A stretch of 64,000 bases of DNA. It comes from Lachnospiraceae bacterium. GTDB taxonomy: Bacteria > Bacillota > Clostridia > Lachnospirales > Lachnospiraceae. The stretch spans positions 11,405-75,404 of the forward strand of contig JAVVVE010000006.1 of assembly GCA_036652815.1 (NCBI GenBank), read 5' to 3'. The translations under genes were made by a program, and so were the position numbers. This document shows, piece by piece, positions 1 through 30,549 of the stretch. Position 1 is the stretch's first letter. Every line of letters starts with the position of its first letter. Below the pieces are notes generated by a model. The model worked only from the letters and a program-made list of their open reading frames with translations. It searched no databases and had not been told where the DNA came from.

Positions 1-550
1 CCTCTGAATTAGGAGTTTCTATAATAATTTTCCCTCCCTCATATAAATGTTCGCTCATGGTTTTTAAATATATTAGTGGATTCTCCAAATGCTCTATAAC
101 ATGAAAACAAGTTATGATATCATATTTTTCTTTACAATCATCAAGGCTCTTATAAACCTTAATCCCTTCAGCATTAATAATCTTTCTTGCCTCATCTTCA
201 ATTTCAACACCTGATACACTATGTGCCACTGACATAATACCTCTTAGGAATCCAGCATTGCCGCATCCAAAATCCAAAATTTTCTTTTCCTTACATGTCT
301 TTTCTAAAAGTGCCACACGTCTATCATCGTCTTCTTTAGTAATAGCTACCCAATCTTCAAAGCTTTCCTCTTCTTCGTTATCATGCATATGTGAATTTTC
401 ATAAAATTCATCTGATATTTGTTCAAAGGAGGATAAAAATACAAGACCACATTTTTTACATTTCAGCACATTAATATTGCTGTTATCTCTTGTACCACAA
501 TGTATTACTTCAATATCTTTATTTCCACACAAACTACATACAGCATTCAT
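1..550 (-). CDS. Class I SAM-dependent methyltransferase with N-terminal CxxC...CxxC zinc ribbon (partial; C-terminus runs off the left edge)
   Basis: Absent from the ORF track because it is truncated. Hand translation of the minus strand from the ATG at 548-550 gives MNAVCSLCGNKDIEVIHCGTRDNSNINVLKCKKCGLVFL...KKILDFGCGNAGFLRG...DIITCFHVIEHLENP. This shows two CxxC pairs followed by the DxGCG SAM motif I, and the frame is open to position 1. Confidence 0.75.
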   Translation of the reverse strand, partial: MNAVCSLCGNKDIEVIHCGTRDNSNINVLKCKKCGLVFLSSFEQISDEFYENSHMHDNEEEESFEDWVAITKEDDDRRVALLEKTCKEKKILDFGCGNAGFLRGIMSVAHSVSGVEIEDEARKIINAEGIKVYKSLDDCKEKYDIITCFHVIEHLENPLIYLKTMSEHLYEGGKIIIETPNSE

Positions 551-572
551 TTTTTATTCTCCTATGTTTAAT

Positions 573-1349
573 TTAATATCCTTTTTTTTGACCACCGTCT
601 ACTACAACTGTATTTCCAGTCATAAAAGAAGCTCTTTCTGAGGCTAGAAATACGATCATATCTGCAATTTCTTCCGGCTTTCCAAAACGTTTCATCGGAA
701 CATTCTGTTCAATATAACTCTTTGTGCCAACTTCATCCGCCAAGAGAAGTTCTTCCCACCTACCTGTTGGATAAATAATATTACCCGGGACTACTGCGTT
801 GACTCGAATACCTTGTTCTGCATAGTCTATCGCCATATATTTCGTTAAGGTCAAAATGGCATTCTTAGCTGCTGCGTAAGCATATGGTGCACTTATCTTC
901 TCACAAGCTGCTAATGATGAAAGTAACACAATGCTACTTCGTTGCTGTTCCATTAAAATATCCAGAAATATTTGAATCAGTTTTACCGCACTATACAGAT
1001 TTATATCAATCAGTCGTGCCCATTCCTCCATATCTAATCTATTCTCTGAGATAGGTTTTCCACTACCAAGATTAGGAATTAGAATATCTACTTTTCCAAA
1101 ACGTGATATGATTTGCTGTTTTGCTTGCTCAATATCACATGTTTTCGTCATATCACCGCATACTACAAATACATTATCTTGACCATAGCATGCACTTAAA
1201 TGAGTATGTGTTGCTATAAGTCTCTCTTGATTTCTTCCATTTATAATTACTTTCGCGCCTTCTGCTAAGAAGCTCTTTGCCGTAGCATATCCGATTCCCT
1301 TAGTTGACGCTGTAATAAAAACTATTTTATCTTGAATTTCCAGATTCAT
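573..1349 (-). CDS. Short-chain dehydrogenase/reductase (SDR) family oxidoreductase
   Basis: 258 aa. Has an N-terminal Rossmann motif (ITASTKGIGYA) and the catalytic YxxxK (YAAAK). Confidence 0.9.
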   Translation of the reverse strand: MNLEIQDKIVFITASTKGIGYATAKSFLAEGAKVIINGRNQERLIATHTHLSACYGQDNVFVVCGDMTKTCDIEQAKQQIISRFGKVDILIPNLGSGKPISENRLDMEEWARLIDINLYSAVKLIQIFLDILMEQQRSSIVLLSSLAACEKISAPYAYAAAKNAILTLTKYMAIDYAEQGIRVNAVVPGNIIYPTGRWEELLLADEVGTKSYIEQNVPMKRFGKPEEIADMIVFLASERASFMTGNTVVVDGGQKKGY

Positions 1350-1421
1350 ATAACTCCTTAAATATTACAAATTTATTTGGTTTTCTAACGATTATTTGAA
1401 TAAATTCTACATTTCTAGCAA

Positions 1422-2264: not shown

Positions 2265-2318
2265 AGTTTTTCTCCTTTTATGTTCAATGTTCTGAAAATA
2301 TGATACTATGACTCGAAA

Positions 2319-2747: not shown

Positions 2748-2762
2748 AGTTTTTCTCCAGTA

Positions 2763-4157
2763 TTAATTATTTTCTGTCACAATTTCCTGCATCGCTTCAA
2801 TGAGAACATCCATGCCTTCCGCTAATGCTTCCTCTGGGATTGTTAGTGGCGGTCCTACTTTAAGCGTTCCTGTCATCGTCCGAATAGACATGAGTCCTTT
2901 TTCAAAAGCTCGCTCTATTACCCTATCTACTAATTCAATATCCAGCTCTAATGTGCCCGGTTTTACAACAATTGCTGCAAAAGCCATACCCATACCATGG
3001 ATTGCCTGTATTCTGTCTGGAAATCTCGCTTGCATTTCTTGAAATTTTGAACGTAAAATATGTTCTTTACTTTTAGAGGCTTCTACCAAATGGTGCTCTT
3101 CAAGAAAATGCAAATTAGCCAATGCTGCTGCACAAGGTAAAGGACTTCCTCCATGTGTACTATTTAAAGATCCATCAACATCAATAATATCAGCCCGGCT
3201 CAATACGGCTGATAATGGTAACGATCCGCTAATTGCTTTACCACAACAAATAATATCTACGTCCACATCATAATATTCATATCCAAATAATTTACCGGTT
3301 CTCCCAAATCCCGCCTGTACTTCATCAGATACCAGCAGTGCATTGTGTTCAGTCAAAAACTTGCGTAAAGCCTTAATATACCCAATGGGATAAAAAAGTG
3401 CTGCCCACCCCTGGTATGGTTCAAAGATTGCTCCTGTAATGGTATCTAAGTCAACCCCCGATGCTTCTAACTGTGTAATATCTCTCTCGAAAAGTTTTCT
3501 GCCTGCCTCTTCATCATAAATCTGATCCATACTCTCAAATGCATTGGTTGGACAACACAGATGATAAATAGAAGGATCCATAGTTCCGATCCAGCTCTGA
3601 GAAGCCGGCTTCCCTGCCATTGTTTGTGCACCTAATGTTTTCCCATGAAAAGCTCCCTCAAATGCAATCATTCCTACTTTGTCTGGTCTTTGTTTTTTTC
3701 CATGCATACGGCAAAGTTTCAATGCACATTCTGTTGTTTCTGCACCAGTAGTTAACAGAAAAGCTTTATCCATAGGGCTAGGTGCCATTTTCACCAACTG
3801 TTCTGCTAATAGTGAACGAATTTCCAAAGAATAATAGTAGCTGTTAAGCATGGGCTTATCAAGCATTTCCTGCAATGCTTGAATGATAGCTTCATTGCCA
3901 TGACCAGTGTTTGTCACAAAGATGCCCGATGAAAAATCTATCCATATATTACCCCATTTATCAAATATCTGATAATCAACTGCTCTATCCCATACGGCAT
4001 AAAGTTGATTGTTCATAGACCAAGGTTCAAATCGAATAGAACGCTCTATAATTTCCAGACTTTCCGGAACCGGAAGTTTTGTCACTATTTTGCGATTTTC
4101 CGTTTCTACCAAAGGAACTTGATGTGGTACTTTGTTAAACATATATTCCGTTGTCAT
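2763..4157 (-). CDS. Class III PLP-dependent aminotransferase
   Basis: 464 aa. Contains the SDEVQAGFGRTGKLF motif and a downstream CCGKAISG lysine, typical of the class III (acetylornithine/GABA/GSA type) aminotransferases. Confidence 0.9.
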   Translation of the reverse strand: MTTEYMFNKVPHQVPLVETENRKIVTKLPVPESLEIIERSIRFEPWSMNNQLYAVWDRAVDYQIFDKWGNIWIDFSSGIFVTNTGHGNEAIIQALQEMLDKPMLNSYYYSLEIRSLLAEQLVKMAPSPMDKAFLLTTGAETTECALKLCRMHGKKQRPDKVGMIAFEGAFHGKTLGAQTMAGKPASQSWIGTMDPSIYHLCCPTNAFESMDQIYDEEAGRKLFERDITQLEASGVDLDTITGAIFEPYQGWAALFYPIGYIKALRKFLTEHNALLVSDEVQAGFGRTGKLFGYEYYDVDVDIICCGKAISGSLPLSAVLSRADIIDVDGSLNSTHGGSPLPCAAALANLHFLEEHHLVEASKSKEHILRSKFQEMQARFPDRIQAIHGMGMAFAAIVVKPGTLELDIELVDRVIERAFEKGLMSIRTMTGTLKVGPPLTIPEEALAEGMDVLIEAMQEIVTENN

Positions 4158-4193: not shown

Positions 4194-4946
4194 TTAGTCT
4201 AACTTAGTTAATACATCATATATCCAAGAACCCTGTTGTTTAATTTTATATTCAAGATATGAAAAATCTTCTATGGTATCTACTTCATAGCAGCAGGGAG
4301 ATTCAAAAGCAATCATCCTATCTCCATGCAATAATTGTTGTTCTATAATAAACTGACTTTTTAGCACATCCACATATCCATCCGGAATATAGACGTTGGG
4401 AAAACCTTGTCTGCCTTCATTGGCTTCATCTAGCGTTATTTTCTCTGAAAGTGCTGTGAAATATTCATTTTCGTTCTTTAGGAACCACTTGTAAGGAGAC
4501 TCTGATGCTAAGTGTGCTGATCGTAAGGATGTAGCTTCCTCCCGTTTCATGATAGTTGAAATTGCCGTATCTACAATTTCTACTTCACGAAGCGGTGTGG
4601 TAGGGCGTAAATGAATCAAATATTCCGGCACACTTCCTTCGTTATCCATAAACCAATGTAATGCATGATTAATAAATTCTATATCACCCGAACAATCCTC
4701 TGCATACTTTTTAGGTCGTAAAAACGGAACCTCCGCTCCATATTTCCGTGCAATCTCAGCTATCTCTTCTGAGTCTGTAGAAACAATCACTCGATCTATC
4801 TGTTGCGAATACCTAGCCAATATAATCGAATATGCAATTAACGGATATCCTTGCAATAATTTAATATTTTTCTGTGGAACACCTTTTGATCCAACTCGTG
4901 CGGGAATAATTGCCGTTCGATTTCCCTGATCTATTTGAACTGTCAT
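4194..4946 (-). CDS. Acylneuraminate-type cytidylyltransferase (CMP-ulosonic acid synthetase family)
   Basis: 250 aa. N-terminal IIPARVGSKGVPQKNI motif characteristic of CMP-NeuAc/CMP-Pse/CMP-Leg synthetases. It overlaps the upstream gene by 4 nt (4943-4946). Confidence 0.85.
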   Translation of the reverse strand: MTVQIDQGNRTAIIPARVGSKGVPQKNIKLLQGYPLIAYSIILARYSQQIDRVIVSTDSEEIAEIARKYGAEVPFLRPKKYAEDCSGDIEFINHALHWFMDNEGSVPEYLIHLRPTTPLREVEIVDTAISTIMKREEATSLRSAHLASESPYKWFLKNENEYFTALSEKITLDEANEGRQGFPNVYIPDGYVDVLKSQFIIEQQLLHGDRMIAFESPCCYEVDTIEDFSYLEYKIKQQGSWIYDVLTKLD

Positions 4947-6007
4947 CTTTCATTCCTCTTATACATCTCGTGTTCTACACATTCACAAATAATATGCCCA
5001 ATCATAATATGCATCTCTTGTATTCTTGGTGTATTTAAGGATGGAACCGATATTACAATATCTGCTTGTTGTGTCATAACACAATTGATATCTCCACCAA
5101 TCATAGCAACTGTTTTCATTTTTTTATCTCGTGCCGCCTTGATTGCTTCTACAATATTTTTAGATGTTCCACTTGTCGAGATAGCAATAAGGACATCTTT
5201 TGCTTTTCCTTTTGCCTCTACTTGTCTTGCAAATACTCTATCAAATGCATAATCATTCCCTATTGCTGTCAAGCACGAGGTATTAACTGTTAATGCTTCT
5301 GCGTTCAATGCCGGTCTGTCAAAATAGAAACGGCTAACTAATTCTGTGGCAAGGTGTTGTGCATCTGCCGCACTACCTCCATTTCCACAGAAAAGCACTT
5401 GTCCGCCTTCTTGAAAAGTAGTATACATTAATTCGATGACTTTCTGTATCGCGTGTTGTAATGTAATATCCATTCTCACTCGGGCTATTAATTGATTATG
5501 TTCCATAAGCGAGTGCGTGAGCTTAGTATGGACTTGTGTGATTCCATCATTATATTTTTCTATCATGTGGATGCACTCTGCCAAGCAGCCATTTCCACCT
5601 TCTGTGGATAAAATAACATCTGCCACTGATTTAACATCTGCTATAGCATCTGCCGGGCATAAACTAAGTCCAACATATTGCATTGCTTCTATATCATATT
5701 TTCCATCTCCTATATAGCAGATAGATTCCGGTGTTATCTCTAATTGATGTGCTAACTTTTCAAGCATTTGCTTCTTAGTCTTGCATGCATCGTACCAGTA
5801 ATCCGGTTCAAGTCTCTCATGAATATATTCTGTGAATGTATTCTTTTCTCCGGTAATAATCCCAAACATTATTTGATGCTTTCTTATCTGCGCAATCGCA
5901 TCAAGATCTTTTAATGAAATAGTTTTTTGCTGTTCTTCTCCTTTTGCAATATATATCTTACCATCCGTAAGCACTCCATCAATATCAGCTACTATAAGCT
6001 TAATCAT
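4943..6007 (-). CDS. Fusion protein: KdsC-type HAD-IIIA ulosonate-phosphate phosphatase (N-terminal) and GmhA-type SIS sugar-phosphate isomerase (C-terminal)
   Basis: 354 aa. The N-terminal half has DIDGVLTDG...IITGEK...GDGKYD (KdsC/KDN-9-P phosphatase type HAD). The C-terminal half has FCGNGGSAADAQHLATEL...ISTSGTSKN, the canonical phosphoheptose isomerase/DiaA-type SIS signature. Confidence 0.8.
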   Translation of the reverse strand: MIKLIVADIDGVLTDGKIYIAKGEEQQKTISLKDLDAIAQIRKHQIMFGIITGEKNTFTEYIHERLEPDYWYDACKTKKQMLEKLAHQLEITPESICYIGDGKYDIEAMQYVGLSLCPADAIADVKSVADVILSTEGGNGCLAECIHMIEKYNDGITQVHTKLTHSLMEHNQLIARVRMDITLQHAIQKVIELMYTTFQEGGQVLFCGNGGSAADAQHLATELVSRFYFDRPALNAEALTVNTSCLTAIGNDYAFDRVFARQVEAKGKAKDVLIAISTSGTSKNIVEAIKAARDKKMKTVAMIGGDINCVMTQQADIVISVPSLNTPRIQEMHIMIGHIICECVEHEMYKRNER

Positions 6008-6013
6008 CGTGTT

Positions 6014-6841
6014 TTATCCTCTCAGTTTTGCTTTTACAGCTTTTTCTGCTTCCGATAATGTCTTCTCACCATTGCCAAGAATAGAGGAAACCGCTCTAAT
6101 ATCTTTTACCAAGCGCTGTAAATCATCTACCTCTAACGATGCTGCCTGATCCGAACCATACATAGTTCTATCTAGTGTGATATGACGTTCTATGGAGGTT
6201 GCTCCCAAGACTGTTGCCGCTACTGATACTAATCTTCCAGTTTCATGTCCACTATAACCTATATCACATTGATAACGTTCCCTTAGTTTTGCTATAAGCA
6301 TTAAGTTCGCATCTTCATTTTTCATAGGATATGTACTATTGCAATGCATTAATTCAAAAGAGCACTTGTATTTTTTAAAAATTGCCACAGCATTATCAAT
6401 TTCCTCATAATTACTCATTCCTGTTGCTATAAAAGTATGTTTACCTTCTTTTGCCACTTCTTCTAATAATTCTCTATTTGTTAACATAGCCGAGGCTATT
6501 TTATTATATGGCAAATCATATTGTTGTAAAAACTTCTGTGCCTCAATATCCCATGCAGACGCAAACCATACGATCTTTTTTTCTTTACAGTATGCATCAA
6601 TCATATCATATTCTGCTTTTCCAAATTCCAAACCTTCTTTTTGAGCACGTTGTGTTGTCCCCCATGGGCTTTCACGATATCCTTCTAAATATTCTTTTGT
6701 ATACACCTTATCAATCGTTCTTTTTTGAAATTTAACAGCATCGCAATCACAGATTACCGCCCAATCAATTAGTTGTTTGACTAATTCCATATCTCCATTA
6801 TGGTTAATTCCTACTTCCGCAATAATAAATGGTTTTTTCAT
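6014..6841 (-). CDS. NeuB-family PEP-condensing (ulosonic acid / ulosonate-phosphate) synthase lacking the C-terminal SAF domain
   Basis: 275 aa. Has the IIAEVGINHNGD, MHCNSTYP and GYSGHETG motifs of the NeuB TIM barrel. The protein ends right after the barrel, so there is no SAF/antifreeze-like domain. Confidence 0.85.
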   Translation of the reverse strand: MKKPFIIAEVGINHNGDMELVKQLIDWAVICDCDAVKFQKRTIDKVYTKEYLEGYRESPWGTTQRAQKEGLEFGKAEYDMIDAYCKEKKIVWFASAWDIEAQKFLQQYDLPYNKIASAMLTNRELLEEVAKEGKHTFIATGMSNYEEIDNAVAIFKKYKCSFELMHCNSTYPMKNEDANLMLIAKLRERYQCDIGYSGHETGRLVSVAATVLGATSIERHITLDRTMYGSDQAASLEVDDLQRLVKDIRAVSSILGNGEKTLSEAEKAVKAKLRG

Positions 6842-6856: not shown

Positions 6857-8086
6857 TTATTGACACCCTCTGTTTTCTTTTATCATAATATCAGCAACTT
6901 GTTCAAAAAAATCAATATCTTGTGAATCACGTCCTTTAATATAATCCATAATATATTTTTTTCGTATATCTTTTGATATTTTTCTAATATATTTCGTTGG
7001 ATTTAACGTTGGTTTGTCAATCATATATGGTTCGATTCCTAGATAGTCAGTGCACGCATACCTTTCATATTTGGTATTAATCAAATCGCTCCACCAAAAT
7101 AATAATCGTTTATTATATAAAACAACATAATCCAAAGCAGTAGAATAACTCATGATAACAAATTCGGCATGTTTAACCAATTCTACCGTATGAAAAAGCG
7201 AAAATTTTCTATTGCCAAATTCATTTCCCTCATAATTAGCACGAGGATGACCTGAAATAATAATCTCACAGTTAAATTGATTTTCCAACTGTTCAAACAG
7301 AATCAATAATTTTTCTTTTACACTTTGTTTGGTCTTTTGAGTATGGTCTTGCCCACCTAATAGTACTATGTCTGGATGAATCGTAAAATCTCCCGCATCT
7401 ATATAAAGTATATATTTTTTTCTGTTTTTTTCAGGCGGTTGCGAATTTGCTTTTAAATATTCATCATAATTCAAAGAATGTATGTATCTAAATCTACTGT
7501 TTTGTTGTAGCAATATTGGAATATGATTTTTATTAGTTCTGGTAGAGCAAAAATAATATTTGGGCGGATGAAGCATTGACTGTGCCAAAAATTTACCATC
7601 TGTATCAATCAACATGTAAATGTACTGTAAAAGAATTTCTTTAAAAACATGCATAACAGAAAATTTTGTAAGATTTGTTTTTTCAAAATTACAAACGTAT
7701 CTCACTTTTTCAATAAGATTTTTTGATAACACCCTTTCACTATAGAGAAGAGGGGGATTAATATGTAATTCATAATAAACACACTTTTCTTTTATTATTT
7801 TTTTCCTAATCCAATTATCTTTACTATACGGAATTAATAATAAAAATTGCTTATTCGCATTTTTTCCTATTTTATTTTCCAATTCACTTTTGGATTTAGG
7901 ATAAAAAACTTCGGTTCTTTTACAAAGTTCTTGTACCGGTGCGATTTTCTTTCTTGTAGCACTTAAATAAATTGTTGACCATATCTGCACATCAATCTTT
8001 TTTCTCTTGAAAATTTCCATCCCAAATCTTTGAAAATCTCTTTCTTCAAAATAATTTTGATATATAAAAATTATCTGATTTCTCAT
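6857..8086 (-). CDS. Hypothetical protein, possible GT-B-like (sialyl/ulosonyl-type) transferase
   Basis: 409-aa Lys/Asn/Ile-rich ORF with no clear family signature by eye. A C-terminal half with ILYIDAGDF ... IISGHPRA ... IMSYSTALDYV is reminiscent of the acidic and HP motifs of bacterial sialyltransferase-like and capsule transferases. It lies between the ulosonic-acid and heptose modules. The CDS is likely real; the function is tentative. Confidence 0.4.
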   Translation of the reverse strand: MRNQIIFIYQNYFEERDFQRFGMEIFKRKKIDVQIWSTIYLSATRKKIAPVQELCKRTEVFYPKSKSELENKIGKNANKQFLLLIPYSKDNWIRKKIIKEKCVYYELHINPPLLYSERVLSKNLIEKVRYVCNFEKTNLTKFSVMHVFKEILLQYIYMLIDTDGKFLAQSMLHPPKYYFCSTRTNKNHIPILLQQNSRFRYIHSLNYDEYLKANSQPPEKNRKKYILYIDAGDFTIHPDIVLLGGQDHTQKTKQSVKEKLLILFEQLENQFNCEIIISGHPRANYEGNEFGNRKFSLFHTVELVKHAEFVIMSYSTALDYVVLYNKRLLFWWSDLINTKYERYACTDYLGIEPYMIDKPTLNPTKYIRKISKDIRKKYIMDYIKGRDSQDIDFFEQVADIMIKENRGCQ

Positions 8087-8121: not shown

Positions 8122-8691
8122 TTATTTTTCTGTAATAGCAAGTGCATTAACTAATAAATGCCATATAATCCCTTGCCATCCTTCTGCATGTGGTGTGATT
8201 CTTTCATCGTTTATTACCGGGATCAAAATACATGCATCTGCATTTTTACCCACATAACCACCATCACGTGACACAAGTCCAATAATTTTAGATCCTTTTT
8301 CTGTCGCATATTTTAATGCTTTTACAATATTTTGTGAAGTATGATCACTTCCTCCACCAACCGATAATATTAAGATAACATCCTGACTATTAAGTCTAGA
8401 TACTCTCAACCATTCTACAAAAGTAGTATCCCAGCCCTCATCATTTACTCTTGCTGTTAGCTCAGATATATTATCCGTAGGTGCATAAGCCTCAATTCCT
8501 GCTATTTTCCTAAAATCATTAACTGCATGAGACGCATTGGCTGCACTGCCTCCAACCCCCAGAATAAATAATCTGCCGTTATTTTTTTTAAGCGCAGCCA
8601 ATATTTCGATGCTTTTTTCGATTTTATCTTTTTCAATGGTTTTAGCTATCTGAATCGTCTCCAAAAGATATTGATTAATATAATTTTCCAT
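8122..8691 (-). CDS. SIS-domain sugar-phosphate isomerase (GmhA/LpcA-like)
   Basis: 189 aa. Contains FILGVGGSAANASHAVNDF ... LSVGGGS SIS motifs. It is adjacent to the heptose kinase and the nucleotidyltransferase/phosphatase genes. Confidence 0.7.
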   Translation of the reverse strand: MENYINQYLLETIQIAKTIEKDKIEKSIEILAALKKNNGRLFILGVGGSAANASHAVNDFRKIAGIEAYAPTDNISELTARVNDEGWDTTFVEWLRVSRLNSQDVILILSVGGGSDHTSQNIVKALKYATEKGSKIIGLVSRDGGYVGKNADACILIPVINDERITPHAEGWQGIIWHLLVNALAITEK

Positions 8692-17293: not shown

Positions 17294-17342
17294 ATGTTTT
17301 CTCCTTAATATCCTACTTTCATTTTATACAATTTCAAACTGT

Positions 17343-22277: not shown

Positions 22278-22341
22278 ATGATTCTCCCCATTCCATTCGT
22301 CATTTAATATATCGACAGAATCTGACTATTCATTAGTTTTT

Positions 22342-23640: not shown

Positions 23641-23699
23641 GATAGTACCCTCATTGTATGAATTTCATCATTTCTCTTTCCTTCATAATAAGGTAAAAT

Positions 23700-23753
23700 G
23701 ATTAATACGTCAAGAAAAATCAGGATTTTCTGATTTTTCTTGACGTATTAATC
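23700..23753 (-). terminator. 24-bp perfect inverted repeat (hairpin), a probable terminator or module boundary
   Basis: GATTAATACGTCAAGAAAAATCAG / GATTTT loop / CTGATTTTTCTTGACGTATTAATC was read directly. It lies 27 nt downstream of the stop of the SDR gene at 23780. Both sides are followed by short, interrupted T runs. Confidence 0.55.
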
Positions 23754-23779
23754 GTTTTACTCTATTTAACTTTTCATTT

Positions 23780-24844
23780 TTATACTACAGAGCGGTGTAT
23801 GCATAGGATTCTCTCCAGTCCTTCGTCTATCCCGACTCTTGCTTCAAAACCCAGCCGATATAGTTTTTCTGCATTCAGTATCTCTTTTGTCATCGTAGAA
23901 TAGCCTGCTTTCTCTGTCTCACTTGCACAAGCCTCGATGACTGTAACACCGGCTGCTCTTGCCAATGTCTTGGCAAAATTTTTAATCGTCACTTGACTAT
24001 TGGGATTGGCCACGTTATAGGCTTCTCCTACAGTGCCTCGTAATAAAATCGTAAGTATCGCCACTGCTGCATCTGCCAGATAGGTATAAGAGCGGTATTG
24101 TGTGCCGGCACTCTTTAATATGATATCCTTTTGTGCAAAAGCCCGTTTCATAAATTGCACATCGGCTTTGGTGCTGTTTTCCGACATCGTGGCTCCATAG
24201 ATATAAGACAGCCTGGCGACGCAGGTATTCAGTCCATACTCTTGATAATAAGCGGCACATAATGTCTCTGCTGCTCTTTTTCCTTCCGGGTAGCAGGAAC
24301 GGGGCTGCATCGATAACACTTCCCCTGCATCACTCTCTAAATATCCGGTTTCACGGTGTATTGTCTGTTTGCCATAGATTTCTCCACTACTTAATAGTAG
24401 TACTCTCTCCGGTTGATGTACTTGTTTTCTACTATGCTCTAAGAGATTCATCATTCCCAAAAAAGCACTTTGCATTGTCTGTACCGGTTGTGATGCAAAT
24501 GCTTGTGGATGATTATTTCCGGCTGCGTGGATTACATAATCCCATTCTATCTCTGTCTTGATCTCATCGCAAATATCTGCGACAAGTATCTGTAAGTCGG
24601 TTCGATTCCGATAAGGGTAGAATCTACGTCGGCTCTTTATCTCATCCCTGCAGAATGCTAAGATTCTCATCTCAAGCTGTGCAATATCGTTCATTTTGAG
24701 AAATAGGTCTACCAGATAAGAACCGATTAATCCGGTCGCACCTGTGACAAGGATTGTCTTATGTGCGAAACGTTCCCAAGGTAACGCTTCCCTGCATATT
24801 TCCTCTAATTCCCTCTGATACAGTGGACTATCCAAGATCGTCAT
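23780..24844 (-). CDS. NAD(P)-dependent epimerase/dehydratase-family (extended SDR) enzyme
   Basis: 354 aa. Has VTGATGLIGSYL (Rossmann) and YPEGK (YxxxK). It lies adjacent to an IspD/TarI-like cytidylyltransferase. Confidence 0.85.
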   Translation of the reverse strand: MTILDSPLYQRELEEICREALPWERFAHKTILVTGATGLIGSYLVDLFLKMNDIAQLEMRILAFCRDEIKSRRRFYPYRNRTDLQILVADICDEIKTEIEWDYVIHAAGNNHPQAFASQPVQTMQSAFLGMMNLLEHSRKQVHQPERVLLLSSGEIYGKQTIHRETGYLESDAGEVLSMQPRSCYPEGKRAAETLCAAYYQEYGLNTCVARLSYIYGATMSENSTKADVQFMKRAFAQKDIILKSAGTQYRSYTYLADAAVAILTILLRGTVGEAYNVANPNSQVTIKNFAKTLARAAGVTVIEACASETEKAGYSTMTKEILNAEKLYRLGFEARVGIDEGLERILCIHRSVV

Positions 24845-24856: not shown

Positions 24857-25573
24857 TTATTTCATCCATTCGTCTTTCGAAGAATGTAACAGTGCTTTGA
24901 ATATCTCAATATCATCTGTCGTGGTTAATTTGAGGTTCTTCTCAGATCCTGTTGAAAAATATATTTCTTCTCCCAATTCAATCATCAAGGTACAGGTCGC
25001 GATAGAGTCTGCAATGCCTCTGTGTGCTGCTTCCTCATGTGCCCACACCAATTTTCCCAAAGGAAAAGACTGCGGTGTCTGTGTCCGTGCCAGCTTATCT
25101 CTATGTATCATCGTCGTGGAACTCTCCCTGTTATTCGTCAACAGCATTGCTTCTGCACAAGGCACTACCGTAATTGCAGAGCCATGCTGTATACAGCAGC
25201 TAATATTATCCGATATAATCTCCTGTGATACCAGTGGACGGATAGCATCATGTATTACCACTATATCTGTATCCTCGCACACACCATGTAATCCCATGAT
25301 ACCACTTTTTAACGAACCTTGTCCGTTTTTGCCACCCGGAAACACCCATTTTAATTTTGTAATATTGAATTGCTTGGCATATGCCTTTAAGATCTCCTGC
25401 CAGCCCTCCAGGCATACTACTGCGATGGCATCAATATTGGGATGACGTTCAAATGCCTCCATCGTATATACAATAACCGGTCTGTCATTCACATTGATAA
25501 ACTGCTTAGGAATATCCTGATTCATGCGTTGCCCGCTTCCCCCTGCGATTAGTAATGCAATATTCATACTCAT
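24857..25573 (-). CDS. IspD/TarI-family cytidylyltransferase (polyol-phosphate, e.g. ribitol-5-P, cytidylyltransferase-like)
   Basis: 238 aa. N-terminal ALLIAGGSGQRM...PKQF motif of the IspD/TarI family. It overlaps the upstream TagF-like gene by 4 nt. Confidence 0.85.
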   Translation of the reverse strand: MSMNIALLIAGGSGQRMNQDIPKQFINVNDRPVIVYTMEAFERHPNIDAIAVVCLEGWQEILKAYAKQFNITKLKWVFPGGKNGQGSLKSGIMGLHGVCEDTDIVVIHDAIRPLVSQEIISDNISCCIQHGSAITVVPCAEAMLLTNNRESSTTMIHRDKLARTQTPQSFPLGKLVWAHEEAAHRGIADSIATCTLMIELGEEIYFSTGSEKNLKLTTTDDIEIFKALLHSSKDEWMK

Positions 25574-26805
25574 TCTCCCATCTTATAAATCTGTTCAAAT
25601 AATCTGGCTGATGAATGTCCATCTATTGTTTGGAACATTCTGGTACGGGACTGTCTTCTGGCTGCTCTATGTGTATCCTCCAGCAGCACCTGATTCACTG
25701 CATGCATCAGCTCTTCCATCGTTGCCGCTTTTATCTCCGGCATATAAGTATCCTGTGGAATATAGCTGTCTCTGGTATTCGCTTCATATAATGCCAGGTC
25801 GTACTGAAATGCTACAACCGGTCTGTCTAACAGCATATAATCAGTATAGACAGAAGAATAGTCCGTAATCAGTACGTCTATCAGCCCTAGAAAAGAATAA
25901 ACATCTATTTGTGCATCTGCACTGATGATATTAGAATATTGTATCTCTTCAAATCGTTCTTTCAGTTTGGATTTTGGATGTAATTTGGTAACGAGTATTC
26001 TCTTGTGTTCTATCAAATATTGATTGAAAAGCTCCAGATCCATCACTGTAAAAAAAACTTCTTCCGAATCTCTAAATGTAGGTAGATAAGCCAGCAAGGT
26101 GTATCCTTCTGTCTTTTTCTCCTGCAATCTCTGCAGTAATCGCTGCTCCTGCACTGTTAATAGGTTATGTATCAGACTCTCTGTTTCTGCAAACAGCATA
26201 TCATTTCTCGGATATCCTTCGATGATAATATGTTTTGCATCAGTCCGAAAAGCCGATTGAAATATCTCGGACATCGCTTCAGAAGTCGCTAATGTATAAT
26301 GATTTGGCTTCTCATCCGACATTCTTCGTAACCAAGTCTGCCACCGTTCTCCTATATTCTTTGGGTGACGCACCCGATCAAATACATTATCATAATTTGT
26401 CTTCTTATTGCCGGAACCATGCCATAGATTGATCTTAACAGCTCCACCCGATAGCCAAAAAGATATGTCCTTTGAATAATTATCAAAGATATATCTACCT
26501 GCATGCAGTTCATACCATATCCCCTTTAGTGAGCGATAATAGTAGGCTTCCTGTCCACAAGCCTGCAGATAAGTTACGATATCAGTTTGATGAGAAATCC
26601 AAATGGCATGGATTTTATCAGCTTTATGCTGCCTCGTATACAGATAAAGATATCTGGGATTCTCTGCAAATCTTTGTCCAAAACCGGAACCAAATAACCA
26701 TATATTTTTATCTCTGTGGCACAAAAAAGAGAGTCCGTACACAGGTAGCAATAATAATTGTCCCCAATATTTGATTCTCTTAATTATGTTCCCATACGCC
26801 ATCAT
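25570..26805 (-). CDS. CDP-glycerol/CDP-ribitol polyol-phosphotransferase (TagB/TagF/TarL family)
   Basis: 411 aa. Contains INLWHGSGNKK and ITDYSSVYTDYMLLDRPVV, the two hallmark regions of the Glyphos_transf family. Confidence 0.85.
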   Translation of the reverse strand: MMAYGNIIKRIKYWGQLLLLPVYGLSFLCHRDKNIWLFGSGFGQRFAENPRYLYLYTRQHKADKIHAIWISHQTDIVTYLQACGQEAYYYRSLKGIWYELHAGRYIFDNYSKDISFWLSGGAVKINLWHGSGNKKTNYDNVFDRVRHPKNIGERWQTWLRRMSDEKPNHYTLATSEAMSEIFQSAFRTDAKHIIIEGYPRNDMLFAETESLIHNLLTVQEQRLLQRLQEKKTEGYTLLAYLPTFRDSEEVFFTVMDLELFNQYLIEHKRILVTKLHPKSKLKERFEEIQYSNIISADAQIDVYSFLGLIDVLITDYSSVYTDYMLLDRPVVAFQYDLALYEANTRDSYIPQDTYMPEIKAATMEELMHAVNQVLLEDTHRAARRQSRTRMFQTIDGHSSARLFEQIYKMGE

Positions 26806-26811
26806 CCTATC

Positions 26812-28311
26812 CTACCACTTCTTAAGAAATGTCTTACGTTCCATCGGATCCATTTTGCTAATCTGCTCATCCATATAATAAGAATCGCTCTTCATATGCT
26901 GTGTGGATACTTCTTCAAAGATAGCACCATTGACCGATGAAAAAGAATGATATTCGCCACGCAATACAGTCTGCATATCACCCGGTTTTAAGGTCTTGTC
27001 TTCTTGTCCATCCATCTGTATCTCTAAGTCTCCATAGAGTACCTGAAAAGTCTCTTCTTTAATCTTATGTGCATGAGAAGGGTGTTTTTGTCCCGGCAGT
27101 ACGATGATATATTTCTTACAGTACTCTCTATTAATAATATTGATAATAATAGCACCATGCTGTCTAAAATGTTTCATCCCATAATGATGAGACAGCTCCA
27201 CTTCAAAGTTATCTCCGAGTGCAATGCCTGCCTCGTAGAGCATGCCCTTAGCGTCATGTACTGCAGTACGCACGATACCGACTCCGGATACTTTAGGCTG
27301 TTCCACGATCTTCTCATTAAGAGCGTAGTCTTTGGAAGCCACCATGCCATCTTTGAATCCACCACTGGTGAGCTGCTTTTCTTGACAAGGCATCGCATAG
27401 AACACATCTGCTTCCGTCATAGTCTCTCCCGCCTGAATAGGATGTTTGGCATAGACTCCTCGCATCAGAGAGGTCAGGGAATCTATCTCTGCCTGCGTTA
27501 CATACTTGTCATTTGGTTTACGTACCTGGCAGATCTCTTTTGCCAATAACGCGGATTTTACCCAGTTCTCTGCCTGCTCCGGATTCATCGAGTACGCATT
27601 TAATCGGATGGTGTCAGTTGGCAGTCCTACATGGCGCTCCAGTATCTGTGCGCCCTTCGCGATCGCTAACATCGGCACCACCGTATTATCAGGATCCTCA
27701 TGTCCCGAATAGCCAATGGTAACATCCCGATATCTACGATTCATCCTATCGATGAAGTCCAATTGTAAGCCTTCTAACGGTGCCGGATATTCTGCGATGC
27801 AATGTAAGAAAGCAAACTCACAGCCCTTATGTGTAAAGAAATTATATATCTTATCAATCTCAGCTAAGGTCTTTCCACCCGTAGAGATAATCAAAGGTTG
27901 CTTAGAAGCTGCCGCTTTCATCAAAAGCGGCCAGTCGAGTGCACTGCAGCTGGCGATCTTAATGATATCCAATCCCTGATCCATACACCACTCTACCCCG
28001 GTCTCATCAAAGGGGGTACTCATGGTAAGCATACCTTCCGCGCGTACCGCATCCACTAATCGAGATAGTTGGTCGTAACTCAACCTGGTACTTAAGAATC
28101 TCGGTATATGTTTTACATCTTCTCTGTCTTTAAAGTCCGGATGAATAAAAGTATCCAGATCCCGATATTGTAATTTCACTGCAGCTTTAATATTGTATTG
28201 ACGGGCTATCCTGCCCATGGCTTTGATAATATCGATACCATGCTCTACGCTACCCTGATGACTATTCGCCATCTCAAATATAAATAGATTCTCCAGTACA
28301 TTACTTTTCAT
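26812..28311 (-). CDS. NeuB-family nonulosonic acid synthase with a SAF domain and an extra C-terminal cupin domain
   Basis: NeuB barrel motifs (FEMANSHQGS, LHCIAEYPAP, GYSGHEDP) are followed by a SAF-like segment (VYAKHPIQAGETMTEADV). After that comes a roughly 140-aa cupin (LPGQKHPSHAHKIKEETFQVLYGDL...GEYHSF). The start is placed at the ATG at 28309-28311 with an AAGGGGG RBS. Confidence 0.8.
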   Translation of the reverse strand: MKSNVLENLFIFEMANSHQGSVEHGIDIIKAMGRIARQYNIKAAVKLQYRDLDTFIHPDFKDREDVKHIPRFLSTRLSYDQLSRLVDAVRAEGMLTMSTPFDETGVEWCMDQGLDIIKIASCSALDWPLLMKAAASKQPLIISTGGKTLAEIDKIYNFFTHKGCEFAFLHCIAEYPAPLEGLQLDFIDRMNRRYRDVTIGYSGHEDPDNTVVPMLAIAKGAQILERHVGLPTDTIRLNAYSMNPEQAENWVKSALLAKEICQVRKPNDKYVTQAEIDSLTSLMRGVYAKHPIQAGETMTEADVFYAMPCQEKQLTSGGFKDGMVASKDYALNEKIVEQPKVSGVGIVRTAVHDAKGMLYEAGIALGDNFEVELSHHYGMKHFRQHGAIIINIINREYCKKYIIVLPGQKHPSHAHKIKEETFQVLYGDLEIQMDGQEDKTLKPGDMQTVLRGEYHSFSSVNGAIFEEVSTQHMKSDSYYMDEQISKMDPMERKTFLKKW

Positions 28312-30202
28312 GGAATACCCCCTTATGAAATACTCTGTCCAATTTATCATCTTTTAGGTCTGTCAATATCGTGTCTATTGTGCTTTGAATCTGAGTCATA
28401 TATGTTTTTCCCATCGTGCAAGCTGTTATCAGTTCTTTTTTCTCTTCTCCCTCTACTTGATAGATGTCCTGCAGCAACTCTGTCGTGCTGTTCTGCATGA
28501 GATGCTGCACATAATGGTAGATGGTATCTTCTTCAATCTCTGCCGTCAGTGCATTGACTTGTTTCATGATCCTTTTCATGTCTCCTGATGCATATCTGTT
28601 TTGTAAGGTTAAGGTAAGCATCTGATCATAGGCTCTGCTCCCACGCTTGGCGAGCGATAAGATATGTTCCAGTCTCTCTGGCATGTCATAGAGATAGGTC
28701 TCAAATCGTTGCTTCTGTTCTGCATTCAGTAAATCAGGTGTGTCTCTTATAATCGCAGCGATATCTACTGTTTGCCTGCACTCTCTTGCAATGGCATCCC
28801 GTAGTGTCATCATCTCGGTGCCGTGTATCATCGCACCGCCCTCTGTTGCATCGATGACGTGCAATCCCCGATAGTTTTTTATCTCATATTCAAACCAATC
28901 CAGATAAATCTTAAATTCCAAACTGGAGGCGATAGGTTGTCCATCTATTCCCTCGACTTCTATCGTATTCTGACTTTCGATAGCGAGATTTTGTTCCCCG
29001 CGTACTGTTTCTTTGGCATGCGTGCGATGGTCGGTATAAGCCAGATCCTGTCCCACCAGGATAATGGTAGTGAATCCCAAGAGCTTTGCAATCGAAAAAG
29101 CTTCATTCGCTACGGAACCTCCCGACGATGTGATCGGCAGCAGCACCTCTTCTTTGGATAAAAATTCTTGTACATGTGGATTCATATCCTGTACAAAAAA
29201 CAAATTATCCGGATGAGCTTCTAATAATTGATATCTACTGGATAAATTACAAAAGAGAGGGATTTCCCGAATCCTTTCCTCCGTAAAATGTGCCAAATCT
29301 TTTTCTCCATCAATCGAAACAAAAGCATCCGGCACTATATGATGTGCCAGTAGTACTCTTAATGCCGAATCCGCTGCAATCAAAAAGCTTTTTCCGGCTG
29401 CTTTTTTTAATTCCTCTATGTTATGATCCAGGGATGGTCCCGCCGCTACGATGATCGCAGGCAGGGTATGTGGTAATCTCTGCCACAGCTCCTGTATCGA
29501 TTTACTATAAGCAAAGCTCCTATAATTCATTATCGTATTCAGGTAATAGCTCGCACCGAAACGTCCCATCACATCCTGGCTGGCGGTGATGGTCTGACAG
29601 ATCACTTCTAATTTTTTATAGAACGCATCCCATTCCTCATGGAAAAGGACCGGATAATTCAGATAGCTTTCGAGAATCAGTTCCTTGATATCCCTAATAT
29701 CTAATTCTCTCGCCAACATGTCTTCATAGCTGAGTTCTCCCTCTTCTGCCACGACAGGTACGACACGCTCATCTGCTAAGATCGCACTGCAGTCAAACTC
29801 TTCCAATACCTTTAGAAATAGAGTCAGCGACGGCTCATAAAGCAGGATCCTGACTTCTTTTTCGCAGTTCTCCAGTAGTGTCCTAACATACATCCCATTT
29901 CCAAACCCAAACAACACGATCTTATTCTTATAGTTCGTCATCTTTAGTCCGCGAAACCAGGTGTCCAGGAGATAATCGGAATCATAAAGAGAATCTAACT
30001 GATACTGCTGCGTCCCCTTATCTACATACAATACTTTTCGCTCTTCTATCAGTTCCACTCCGGGTATGAGCTCTTGTGTCTCGCTTGGTTGCTCTAATGC
30101 ATGCAGCAGATTATGATATAAGATCGGATCTTTTTGTTGCAGTACCTTTAGGTTAGTCTCCAGATGACTGTCTATATTCACATCCCTGTTCTTCTGTGTC
30201 AT
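28301..30202 (-). CDS. maf: Motility-associated factor (Maf, DUF115/MAF_flag10) flagellin glycosyltransferase
   Basis: 633 aa. The central AIIVAAGPSLDHNIEELKKAAGKSFLIAADSALRVLLAHHIVPDAFVSIDGE segment is typical of DUF115 Maf proteins. It is the second gene downstream of fliC. Confidence 0.85.
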   Translation of the reverse strand: MTQKNRDVNIDSHLETNLKVLQQKDPILYHNLLHALEQPSETQELIPGVELIEERKVLYVDKGTQQYQLDSLYDSDYLLDTWFRGLKMTNYKNKIVLFGFGNGMYVRTLLENCEKEVRILLYEPSLTLFLKVLEEFDCSAILADERVVPVVAEEGELSYEDMLARELDIRDIKELILESYLNYPVLFHEEWDAFYKKLEVICQTITASQDVMGRFGASYYLNTIMNYRSFAYSKSIQELWQRLPHTLPAIIVAAGPSLDHNIEELKKAAGKSFLIAADSALRVLLAHHIVPDAFVSIDGEKDLAHFTEERIREIPLFCNLSSRYQLLEAHPDNLFFVQDMNPHVQEFLSKEEVLLPITSSGGSVANEAFSIAKLLGFTTIILVGQDLAYTDHRTHAKETVRGEQNLAIESQNTIEVEGIDGQPIASSLEFKIYLDWFEYEIKNYRGLHVIDATEGGAMIHGTEMMTLRDAIARECRQTVDIAAIIRDTPDLLNAEQKQRFETYLYDMPERLEHILSLAKRGSRAYDQMLTLTLQNRYASGDMKRIMKQVNALTAEIEEDTIYHYVQHLMQNSTTELLQDIYQVEGEEKKELITACTMGKTYMTQIQSTIDTILTDLKDDKLDRVFHKGVFHEK

Positions 30203-30549
30203 AATACGATCTCCATCTTCTCCATCCTATCCAGATATAGCATCAGATTCTCTTTGGTCTCATAATGAAGGACATCTATCATCGCAAACCAGTCTTCTCT
30301 TTCCAGTGCTTCCATGATCCGTTCCATCTGCCCCTGCCAATAAGTCATATCTTCTGCTTCGTCCTGTAATTGCGGCAGCTCATAAGAAGAGATAATAATA
30401 GGTATGACTGCCTGTAGGAGATTAATGAATACCGGCATCAGACGTTCGGCCGCATATGCTCTGTTCTTAGCGATAGCTTCTGTCAGCAAGTCTATGGTCT
30501 CTATGGTCTCTTTTATCTTATCTGCAAATATCTGCATCGTTGCATCCAT
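30199..30549 (-). CDS. Hypothetical small acidic helical protein, translationally coupled to maf
   Basis: 116-aa ORF whose stop overlaps the maf start (ATGA at 30199-30202). No recognisable family. Confidence 0.6.
   Translation of the reverse strand: MDATMQIFADKIKETIETIDLLTEAIAKNRAYAAERLMPVFINLLQAVIPIIISSYELPQLQDEAEDMTYWQGQMERIMEALEREDWFAMIDVLHYETKENLMLYLDRMEKMEIVL

Follow-up and report, generated by a model that had tools for sequence, protein, structure and literature searches.

The window analysed here is a 64,000-nt stretch from a Lachnospiraceae bacterium represented by a metagenome-assembled genome (MAG; assembly GCA_036652815.1, contig JAVVVE010000006.1, positions 11,405 to 75,404 of the forward strand), in which the flagellin gene fliC is followed on the same strand by an island of about 34 kb and 33 genes, rich in genes for the activation and transfer of sugars. 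This island is likely to serve the O-glycosylation of flagellin, with assembly of the glycan in the cytoplasm. Cytoplasmic assembly on flagellin is the best reading because the core of the island is linked to fliC in many metagenomic loci, polytopic membrane proteins are generally absent, and a precedent exists in the TagF-like protein CD0244 of Clostridioides difficile. An earlier note on this DNA, made by a model from the letters and a list of translated open reading frames (ORFs), had proposed cytoplasmic assembly of a complex anionic glycan on flagellin. This part of its proposal stands as the best reading. The assignment of all 25 low-G+C genes to flagellin is not fully supported, as it draws on their position together with a partial recurrence of their families in flagellin-linked loci.

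Linkage of the core module to flagellin genes

The six fliC-proximal genes of the island encode a DUF8042-like protein, the transferase Maf, a NeuB-cupin fusion, a TagF-like phosphotransferase, an IspD-like cytidylyltransferase and a short-chain dehydrogenase/reductase (SDR). Together with the genes that follow, a flagellin-directed transferase (Maf) is combined with many genes for activated sugars, including two NeuB synthases, a CTP_transf_3 cytidylyltransferase, IspD, a set for a nucleoside-diphosphate (NDP) heptose and a DegT aminotransferase. The first of the island genes starts 75 nt after fliC, beside the flagellin gene and within a late flagellar cluster. Pfam and NCBIfam searches confirmed nearly all domain calls of the earlier note, including the two NeuB synthases, CTP_transf_3, and the heptose, CDP-polyol and DegT/cupin/methyltransferase sets, as well as its recognition of the second gene as a Maf/DUF115 factor (Table 1).

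Eighty metagenomic loci (L027-L106) were fetched by alignment with the NeuB-cupin protein and their ORFs were compared with the proteins of the window; a metagenome scan with Maf alone gave no matches. Among the 40 loci with at least 6 kb upstream of the NeuB-cupin gene, FliC and Maf were each found in 30 and CTP_transf_3 in 34, all on the same strand. A TagF-like gene lies within 3 kb of the NeuB-cupin gene in 23 of the 49 loci with at least 3 kb downstream, and no ORF with four or more hydrophobic segments was found in 34 of the 42 loci with at least 8 kb downstream (about 10 kb scanned). Some families from the remainder of the island recur as well: the 36 loci that possess both FliC and Maf contain homologues of the C2185-domain protein and of the left-end methyltransferase (nine loci each), of the GT-D glycosyltransferase (five), of the DegT aminotransferase and the GT2 glycosyltransferase (three each), and of the cupin and the GT4 glycosyltransferase (two each). 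Many of the surveyed contigs with the order fliC, Maf, CTP_transf_3, NeuB-cupin and TagF-like are labelled as human-gut metagenome, and in several of them two or three flagellin genes stand in tandem and Maf is present as two paralogues.

A relative from the JGI metagenome 3300001682 (L024/L026), whose FliC is 80% identical, has the genes in the order fliC, small protein, Maf, NeuB-cupin, TagF-like, fused IspD and SDR, GT2 and ATPase. About 40 kb downstream it possesses a short NeuB with a HAD-SIS fusion and then a Wzy_C-Glf-VanZ block, and the middle genes differ; no membrane proteins were found in the island parts fetched. The comparison of fliC-flanking regions in relatives, which the earlier note had proposed, thus gives the same core order behind fliC in this relative, besides FliC upstream in the 30 loci mentioned above.

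Extent and composition of the island

The ORF listing of positions 1-30549 contains 29 complete genes plus a truncated one downstream of fliC, and every one of them is on the minus strand. The same-strand run described in the earlier note is therefore real, while its count of about 31 genes becomes 30. With ATG starts, the intergenic gaps range from -11 to +72 nt, the exceptions being 75 nt after fliC and 139 nt before the ATPase gene at 22342-23640, and our gap table reproduced all six overlaps that had been noticed by eye (30199-30202, 28301-28311, 25570-25573, 12861-12871, 10007-10010 and 4943-4946). As had been expected, the island runs past the left edge: exact-protein look-ups leftwards (L001/L017, 100% identical to the window across the overlap) reached 5.6 kb past the edge, of which 3.4 kb belong to the island. 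In this extension the left-end methyltransferase is completed to 287 aa, and three further genes for soluble proteins follow, namely another SDR, a CN-hydrolase and a radical-SAM enzyme with a B12-binding domain. Measured from the terminator of fliC to the B12-radical-SAM gene 3.4 kb beyond the left edge, the whole island comprises about 34 kb and 33 genes. Contigs of two further MAGs, GCA_036652075.1 and GCA_036656355.1, as well as Logan contigs, match the window with 100% identity.

The island is a mosaic of a host-G+C core near fliC and a low-G+C block. The host has a G+C content of 0.41-0.44 and a G+C content at third codon positions (GC3) of about 0.40-0.46. The six core genes are host-like (0.39-0.44), and near 23780 there is a clear break, not mentioned in the earlier note, with a G+C content of about 0.42-0.44 to its right and 0.28-0.39 to its left; from about 20.9 kb leftwards GC3 is 0.21-0.29. 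Besides this deviating composition, the gene content of the island differs from that of the relative L024/L026. No Rfam families were found in the window or the leftward extension, and no repeats or tRNA-type boundaries of the low-G+C block were identified except 42-nt repeats that flank an ATPase cassette (see below).

Export genes and the Wzy_C-Glf border

By hydropathy, neither the 30 island genes inside the window nor the three beyond its edge encode a polytopic membrane protein. Pfam searches and a Kyte-Doolittle scan of positions 1-30549 agree with the earlier note that this part encodes no polytopic product, no Wzx/Wzy and no ABC exporter. Likewise, no initiating polyprenyl-phosphate transferase of the TagO/WecA/WbaP type was found among the 33 island genes, and no exporter, polymerase/ligase or LytR-CpsA-Psr (LCP) transferase inside the island, by Pfam and hydropathy. 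The protein at 13937-14395 does have the N-terminal helix ascribed to it; it is not the only single-pass protein, as one helix is also present in the 116-aa protein at 30199-30549.

The gene that directly follows the island encodes a Wzy_C/O-antigen-ligase-family protein of 532 aa with 10 hydrophobic segments (Pfam 34 bits, cut-off 31.7), and glf comes next. The earlier note had named flippase, polymerase or initiating genes just past the left edge as evidence that would count against it; taken literally, the Wzy_C gene is such a gene, but we read it as a backbone neighbour. The G+C content climbs from about 0.33-0.36 to the host level of 0.41-0.43 exactly at the Wzy_C gene, where GC3 regains the host level as well. 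A block of Wzy_C, Glf, VanZ and carboxyltransferase genes is kept in relatives: in L020 and L026 sugar genes precede it, and in L021 (63% identity) the genes before it encode a two-component system and an ABC transporter, without sugar genes. Because of the host G+C content and the conservation of the block in L021 without adjacent sugar genes, we infer that the Wzy_C-Glf pair belongs to the backbone rather than to the island, and it is on this reading that the island proper measures about 34 kb and 33 genes.

In L020 and L026 (10001-18264) the block includes a carboxyltransferase of the acetyl-CoA-carboxylase type. It is followed in both by a second Maf fused to DUF8042 and a CTP_transf_3 gene of 337-341 aa, then by a short DUF8042 protein in L020 or an opposite-strand FliD_C-like gene in L026, and finally by rpmG-secE-nusG. 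For the present genome, we infer from these relatives that VanZ, the carboxyltransferase, a second Maf and a CMP-synthetase lie beyond glf. The genes from the late flagellar cluster to rpmG look like one flagellar/glycosylation super-locus.

Table 1. Features of the flagellin-linked island, of fliC and of the left border (window coordinates; E values from Pfam where a Pfam family is given)
Feature	Position	Strand	Basis or remark
Sigma-28 (FliA/SigD)-like promoter of fliC	31578-31603	minus	TAAA-N16-CCGATA
fliC	30625-31440	minus	271-aa flagellin, D0/D1 domains only; Flagellin_N and Flagellin_C (Pfam)
Intrinsic terminator after fliC	30576-30607	minus	13-bp stem, 5-nt loop, U-run
DUF8042-like protein, 116 aa, putative Maf partner	30199-30549	minus	weak PF26154 match in precomputed Pfam
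Maf, putative flagellin ulosonic-acid transferase	28301-30202	minus	PF01973 MptE-like, E 4.6e-39
NeuB-type PEP-aldose condensing synthase with C-terminal cupin, fusion	26812-28311	minus	Pfam NeuB, Cupin_2; NeuB-type
TagF-like CDP-alcohol phosphotransferase (Glyphos_transf)	25570-26805	minus	PF04464, E 3.4e-55
IspD-family cytidylyltransferase, putative CDP-polyol or CDP-ketose maker	24857-25573	minus	PF01128, E 3.8e-35
Extended SDR (epimerase/dehydratase fold), presumed CDP-polyol reductase	23780-24844	minus	PF01370, E 5e-42
42-nt imperfect direct repeats, 88% identical	22253-22294 and 23780-23821		flank the cassette
Perfect 48-nt palindrome	23703-23750		upstream of the ATPase gene, overlaps -35/-10-like hexamers
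AAA_14/DUF4143 ATPase	22342-23640	minus	Pfam; PADLOC PDC-S01 (PDLC04786), E 3.3e-169, full length
GT2 and methyltransferase fusion	20904-22277	minus	PF00535, E 1e-25; Methyltransf_23, E 6e-6
GT4 with N-terminal C2185-like domain	19497-20894	minus	Glycos_transf_1, E 1.2e-25; C2185-like_N, E 3e-4; alignment
444-aa protein with N-terminal C2185-like domain, possibly GT-B	18141-19475	minus	N-terminal alignment; sub-threshold Glyco_transf_4
SAM methyltransferase	17343-18104	minus	Pfam
WbuC-like cupin	16850-17293	minus	Pfam; NCBIfam WbuC cupin 34.6 bits (cut-off 42)
DegT/LegC-like aminotransferase	15721-16857	minus	Pfam; NCBIfam LegC family 324 bits (cut-off 420)
GT-D (DUF1792/SP_1767 family) with N-terminal C2185-like domain	14413-15663	minus	PF08759, E 3e-79; TIGR03728, 248 bits
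152-aa protein, N-terminal transmembrane helix, then C2185-like Rossmann-type domain	13937-14395	minus	hydropathy, alignment
GT2 glycosyltransferase	12861-13898	minus	PF00535, E 2e-31
Polysaccharide pyruvyl transferase	11744-12871	minus	PF04230, E 1.5e-24
Transaldolase/FSA	11018-11734	minus	Pfam; NDP-heptose supply route
HddA-like GHMP kinase	10007-10981	minus	NCBIfam HddA 176 bits (cut-off 600)
HddC-like nucleotidyltransferase and GmhB-like phosphatase fusion	8712-10010	minus	HddC 86 bits (cut-off 300), GmhB 137 bits (cut-off 178)
Divergent SIS isomerase	8122-8691	minus	gmhA 60 bits (cut-off 209)
409-aa protein of unknown family, candidate transferase by position only	6857-8086	minus	
Short NeuB without SAF domain	6014-6841	minus	Pfam; ulosonic-acid route via a phosphorylated intermediate
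KdsC/KDN-9-P-phosphatase-like HAD and GmhA fusion	4943-6007	minus	gmhA 202 bits (cut-off 209), KDN-9-P phosphatase 108 bits, KdsC 104 bits
PseF/KdsB-like cytidylyltransferase (CTP_transf_3)	4194-4946	minus	NCBIfam PseF 135 bits (cut-off 206)
Class-III aminotransferase	2763-4157	minus	Pfam
VOC/glyoxalase	2319-2747	minus	Pfam
Xylose-isomerase-like TIM barrel	1422-2264	minus	Pfam
SDR	573-1349	minus	Pfam
Methyltransferase, truncated by the window edge	1-550	minus	Pfam
Wzy_C gene, then glf (UDP-galactopyranose mutase)	L017 11495-13634 = window -3498 to -5637	same strand	

The core genes

The product of fliC, the presumed acceptor of the glycan, is also 61% identical to FliC of L003. Maf is a protein of 633 aa with the PF01973 domain over residues 222-391, and its gene, 425 nt from fliC, overlaps the NeuB-cupin gene by 11 nt. 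The sole PDB sequence match of Maf, over the PF01973 region, is 5mu5 (E 7e-6), a 666-aa chain deposited as 'Uncharacterized protein', which we take to be a Maf. With 120.6 bits against the NCBIfam PseD model (NF050051, cut-off 670) and 46% identity to Maf of L024, the protein reads as a divergent Maf and not as a PseD orthologue. The preceding 116-aa protein, for which a separate hmmscan gave no match, is 43% identical to the protein at the same position in L024, and DUF8042 is fused to Maf in L020 and L026.

The two NeuB domains of the island match Pfam with E values of 1e-70 and 1.7e-42, and both proteins, with 249 and 141 bits, remain well short of the NeuB and PseI cut-offs of 400. The NeuB-cupin protein, of which more than 120 clusters were found at 72-86% identity, matches PDB 3g8r (E 1.4e-88); its cupin resembles D-lyxose/mannose isomerase, with weak matches to the lyxose isomerases 2y0o and 7nzo. 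Searches with Pfam and NCBIfam detected no PseB, PseH, PseG, NeuC or LegG, and hence no complete canonical pathway for pseudaminic, legionaminic or neuraminic acid (Pse/Leg/Neu). As CMP-synthetase, the core would have to use either the PseF-like protein (4194-4946) or, like the relative, one encoded beyond glf.

A TagF-family phosphotransferase (PF04464) and a CDP-polyol supply (IspD, SDR), both of teichoic type, are present in the core. The TagF-like protein is soluble, lacks a transmembrane segment and scores far under the cut-offs of the TarF, TarL and TarB models; the IspD-like protein, whose counterpart in L024 is fused to the SDR, reaches 151 bits against the ribitol-5-phosphate cytidylyltransferase subfamily (cut-off 166), and no NCBIfam equivalog was reached by the extended SDR. 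These genes do not discriminate between a wall polymer and flagellin, since flagellin glycan clusters share them (PMC10714395). In Lachnotalea glycerini (QICS01000003.1; L025 8942-21491), CTP_transf_3, NeuB-cupin, methyltransferase and TagF-like genes stand beside phosphonate genes for a fused cytidylyltransferase and phosphoenolpyruvate (PEP) mutase, a thiamine-diphosphate (TPP) enzyme resembling phosphonopyruvate decarboxylase and an iron alcohol dehydrogenase (Fe-ADH), suggesting that the TagF-like enzyme can use different CDP- or CMP-linked donors across strains. We also considered NeuB-cupin, IspD and SDR as a CDP-2-glycerol-type route like that of pneumococcal Gtp1-3, and dropped this candidate, the family of Gtp3 not being given in the literature searched.

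The low-G+C block

The transferases listed in the earlier note, that is, Maf, two GT2, GT4, GT-D and TagF-like proteins plus one pyruvyl transferase, each have a Pfam match. Of the four methyltransferase domains that it counted, three were detected, located at 1-550, at 17343-18104 and in the C-terminal half of the protein at 20904-22277, and its GT-B-like call for 18141-19475 leans on a sub-threshold Glyco_transf_4 hit (E 0.0019) only; this 444-aa protein has no significant Pfam, NCBIfam or PDB match. Homologues of the amino-sugar tailoring set at 15721-18104 with 64-68% identity occur behind fliC-maf-neuB in L027 and L090.

A Rossmann-like domain of about 95 aa (Pfam C2185-like_N) is common to four proteins of the block (13937-14395, 14413-15663, 18141-19475 and 19497-20894). 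It is N-terminal in the GT-D, GT4 and 444-aa proteins and follows the transmembrane helix in the 152-aa protein, and it was also observed in the islands L023 and L025 and in nine of the 36 flagellin-linked loci. To our eye the domain resembles the N-domain of PglD/NeuD, and it could serve flagellin-glycan transferases as a common module for nucleotide binding or docking.

Four domain types of the GDP-D-glycero-alpha-D-manno-heptose pathway are encoded by adjacent genes, with every NCBIfam equivalog score under its cut-off. The neighbouring 409-aa protein at 6857-8086 has no Pfam, NCBIfam or PDB match even at lax thresholds, and its single-sequence AlphaFold model is unusable (predicted local distance difference test score, pLDDT, 35). 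Next to it lies an ulosonic-acid set (4194-6841; PDB match 6ncs), whose short NeuB and HAD-SIS pair recurs in the island of the relative L026 with 70% and 48% identity; the HAD-GmhA fusion architecture also recurs among cluster representatives. A GmhA-type isomerase fused to a phosphatase allows, but does not demonstrate, an ulosonic acid derived from heptose-7-phosphate.

At the left end, the aminotransferase, SDR, TIM-barrel, methyltransferase, CN-hydrolase and B12-radical-SAM genes probably tailor this second ulosonic acid; they recur with NeuB and CTP_transf_3 in L023 as a set of radical-SAM, methyltransferase, CTP_transf_3, Aminotran_3, CN_hydrolase, NeuB and AP_endonuc_2 proteins. A homologue of the left-end methyltransferase is located behind fliC-maf in L003. 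Among species-representative genomes its relatives are at most 52% identical, the best coming from an Anaerocolumna MAG with a small island of fliC, a 104-aa protein, Maf, a TylF-type methyltransferase, the left-end methyltransferase homologue and GT2.

An ATPase cassette inside the island

The AAA_14/DUF4143 ATPase gene is not a glycosylation gene, though it is located inside the sugar-gene island. The same palindrome arms and ATPase gene (85% amino acid identity) were found at a different position in L024, and the homology between the two cassettes begins exactly at the palindrome and ends at the stop codon. This unit of about 1.5 kb may be a small mobile defence cassette, PDC-S01 being a candidate family only. 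Of the flanking 42-nt repeats, one forms the 3' end of the SDR gene and the other the 5' end of the GT2-methyltransferase gene. As the repeat matches both gene ends, these two genes appear to have once overlapped, which suggests that the core and the variable part formed one operon before the cassette was inserted. The ATPase gene was also considered as a marker of the island boundary and rejected, as it forms a discrete cassette that sits elsewhere in the relative.

fliC and the late flagellar cluster

fliC is a self-contained unit with its own promoter and terminator. The sigma-28-like motif has only two matches in the window, the one before fliC and another at 35212-35237 that precedes flaG-fliD-fliS-flgN, and the scan identified no such promoter within the island. 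The terminator of fliC (predicted RNA fold -20.2 kcal/mol, z = -5.9 versus shuffles) is located about 30 nt before the first island gene. With such a promoter and strong terminator, co-transcription of the island with fliC is not implied.

Upstream of fliC the late flagellar cluster contains flgM, flgN, two flgK-like genes, flgL, fliW, csrA, flaG, fliD, fliS and flgN. The tandem FlgK-like genes, of 643 and 560 aa, are located at 37547-41194, and the two FlgN-family genes at 31636-32118 and 41218-41739. Past about 42 kb there are housekeeping genes, including those for glutamine synthetase III, RNase J, ThiI, PrmA and DnaK.

Proposed function and alternative explanations

Maf enzymes transfer CMP-nonulosonic acids, and even Kdo, to Ser/Thr residues of flagellin in the cytoplasm (bioRxiv 10.1101/2020.06.03.131540). 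In the mechanism that we propose, Maf would use a CMP-activated ulosonic acid to modify Ser/Thr residues in the exposed central part of the short flagellin, in the cytoplasm and before export. The first ulosonic acid would be made by NeuB-cupin, a likely source because its gene overlaps maf, and the cupin could supply the aldose. The soluble TagF-like enzyme would then add a polyol-phosphate from the CDP-polyol made by the IspD-like protein and the SDR, giving a phosphodiester. Elongation and modification of the glycan would fall to the soluble GT2, GT4, GT-D, pyruvyl transferase and methyltransferases of the low-G+C part, with an NDP-heptose, an amino sugar and another CMP-ulosonic acid, made via a phosphorylated intermediate, as donors. 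A lipid carrier, flippase or polymerase would not be required, and glycosylated flagellin would be exported through the flagellar type III channel. As for its evolution, the locus may consist of a conserved frame, with fliC and the core on one side and Wzy_C-Glf-VanZ on the other, around a hypervariable, horizontally acquired middle into which the small candidate defence cassette was inserted.

Several observations weigh against this interpretation. Flagellin glycosylation in this organism, represented by a MAG, is predicted from its genes. With the strong fliC terminator and the lack of a sigma-28-like promoter in the island, no link between expression of the island and the flagellar regulon is visible. 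The NeuB-cupin gene of the core is not adjoined by a CMP-synthetase gene, unlike in 34 of the 40 surveyed loci, and the NeuB-cupin/TagF-like pair of L. glycerini has no fliC in the 10 kb upstream. The island is split by the cassette with its palindrome (22295-23779), and Wzy_C, a membrane protein, and Glf follow it on the same strand after a gap of 96 nt, 3.5 kb beyond the edge. The heptose genes, the pyruvyl transferase and the 409-aa protein have no homologue in the 36 flagellin-linked loci. Finally, loci for cell-wall polymers, too, typically contain TagF-like, CDP-polyol, pyruvyl-transferase and heptose genes. On this last point, the TagF-like CD0244 of C. difficile is needed, together with a cytidylyltransferase, for the phospho-linked part of the type A flagellin glycan (PMC10714395), a precedent that removes much of the teichoic-acid argument for a wall polymer.

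Some of these points would be explained if only the core (30549 to about 23780, perhaps 20904) acted on flagellin, and the low-G+C block made an envelope glycopolymer on a lipid carrier, that is, a teichoic-acid-like or secondary wall polymer or a capsule, with initiation and export genes elsewhere, possibly with Wzy_C and Glf. We consider such a division of functions unlikely. It would fit the sharp break in G+C and GC3 with the cassette between the two parts, the location of Wzy_C and glf directly after the block on the same strand, and the pyruvyl transferase and NDP-heptose route of the block, which are classic for wall and S-layer glycans and, as stated above, lack homologues in the surveyed flagellin-linked loci. 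Cell-wall polysaccharide genes have also been reported from the flagellar hypervariable region of C. sporogenes (PMC13317340). It is opposed by the lack of an initiating transferase, flippase, ABC exporter, polymerase or LCP ligase in 27 kb, where all transferases are soluble, and by the recurrence behind fliC-maf elsewhere of the GT-D, C2185-domain, DegT/cupin, GT2, GT4 and left-end methyltransferase families. The block also contains a GT-D enzyme, a type known from cytoplasmic protein O-glycosylation, and the 42-nt repeat suggests that the GT2-methyltransferase gene once overlapped the last core gene, in one operon. The Wzy_C-Glf-VanZ genes, for their part, have host G+C content and are present in L021 without adjacent sugar genes.

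It is also conceivable, at a far lower probability, that another exported protein such as an S-layer protein, adhesin or pilin is glycosylated, and that the position next to fliC is a coincidence of a recombination hotspot. In streptococci, GT-D enzymes of the SP_1767 family modify serine-rich adhesins; a sigma-28-like promoter is absent from the island, and the region behaves as a hotspot in that a defence-type cassette was inserted and the content differs among relatives. Against this explanation, the transferases of the Maf family are specific for flagellin, FliC accompanies the core in 30 of 40 loci, and no alternative acceptor gene or accessory secretion genes were found in the island or the window. 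Glycosylation of flagellin in the cytoplasm thus remains the preferred interpretation of the island.

A more specific chemistry is only tentative, and we regard it as doubtful when its two parts are taken jointly: the fliC-adjacent module would place on flagellin a non-canonical ulosonic acid that bears a polyol-phosphate, and the short NeuB and HAD-GmhA proteins would condense PEP with heptose-7-phosphate into a ten-carbon 3-deoxy-ulosonic acid. We know of no sugar class of the latter description. If true, the first of these parts would mean that a protein O-glycan is decorated with a phosphodiester in the manner of teichoic acids, comparable to the ribitol-phosphate of dystroglycan in mammals.

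Comparison with known systems

The locus fits the known concept of a flagellin glycosylation island or hypervariable region, and polyol-phosphate transfer and the possible heptose-derived ulosonic-acid route are its unusual parts. It is less unusual than the earlier note had implied, as flagellin islands (PMC5109656) and hypervariable regions (PMC13317340) have already been described. The flagellin glycosylation islands of Geobacillus comprise 13.4-30.4 kb and 11-23 genes, have a G+C content about 10% below that of the genome and vary among strains (De Maayer & Cowan 2016, PMC5109656). Like the present island, they adjoin a flagellin gene in a conserved late-flagellar locus, encode Maf and/or glycosyltransferases as well as nucleotide-sugar routes (NeuB-type, DegT, methyltransferases, even glf), and combine low G+C with variable content. 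The present island is somewhat larger (about 34 kb, 33 genes), is located between fliC and the Wzy_C-Glf block instead of between flaA2 and flaG, lacks canonical Pse/Neu sets, and adds TagF-like/CDP-polyol, NDP-heptose, GT-D and pyruvyl-transferase functions.

In Clostridium, the flagellar hypervariable region includes 2-89 genes and evolves independently; it often encodes Maf and nonulosonic-acid enzymes besides numerous methyltransferases and glycosyltransferases, and in some cases it contains cell-wall genes and mobile elements (Anderson et al. 2026, PMC13317340). Our island differs from it by its occurrence in Lachnospiraceae, by other flanks and by the lack of a recognised set of Pse/Leg orthologues; the text of that paper (PMC13317340) makes no mention of teichoic, CDP-glycerol, ribitol or heptose functions. 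Closer in its chemistry is the cluster CD0240-CD0244 of C. difficile, along with FgtA of Pseudomonas aeruginosa, where a cytidylyltransferase and a soluble TagF-like protein add a phospho-linked anionic substituent to a flagellin-bound sugar in cytoplasmic steps encoded downstream of fliC (PMC10714395). The first sugar of the C. difficile glycan is GlcNAc, added by a GT2-type enzyme, and the proposed donor is CDP-threonine (PMC10714395), whereas in the present cluster, about six times larger, Maf would act first and the donor would probably be a CDP-polyol from the IspD-like protein and the SDR.

The ulosonic-acid set at 4194-6841 and the two pathways described next share the same order of functions, namely an isomerase, a PEP-condensing synthase, a KdsC-family phosphatase and a cytidylyltransferase. 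Kdo is made by KdsD-KdsA-KdsC-KdsB, and KDN in Bacteroides by KDN-9-P synthase, KDN-9-P phosphatase and CMP-KDN synthetase. The present set differs from both by an isomerase of the GmhA type (sedoheptulose-7-phosphate isomerase, 202 bits) that is fused to the phosphatase, and by a synthase of NeuB type rather than KdsA type. The flagellar locus of Campylobacter jejuni, with about 50 genes by the flagellin genes, is dominated by Pse/Leg pathways and maf paralogues, and has NeuB-type synthases, CMP-synthetases and tailoring enzymes and no lipid-carrier steps. The present island possesses a single Maf and no PseB/PseC/PseH/PseG or LegB/LegG set. Its many glycosyltransferases of conventional type point to an oligosaccharide instead of single sugars.

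Biological significance

No paper on flagellin glycosylation in Lachnospiraceae, or on such islands there, was found in the literature searched. Worth keeping from this locus are the conserved Maf/NeuB-cupin/TagF-like core in gut-associated Lachnospiraceae, the possible heptose-derived ulosonic acid and the nested candidate defence cassette. The conserved fliC-adjacent module, which in some lineages includes an IspD/SDR pair, is common in Lachnospiraceae-like contigs, and hypervariable, horizontally exchanged genes follow it. Flagellins of Lachnospiraceae rank among the major bacterial antigens that the gut immune system encounters; TLR5 recognises them, and in Crohn's disease antibodies are directed against them. 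Should the predicted glycans be produced, the flagella of commensals would carry strain-specific, anionic glycans that contain phosphodiesters and possibly unusual sugars, and these could alter immune recognition and the attachment of flagellotropic phages.

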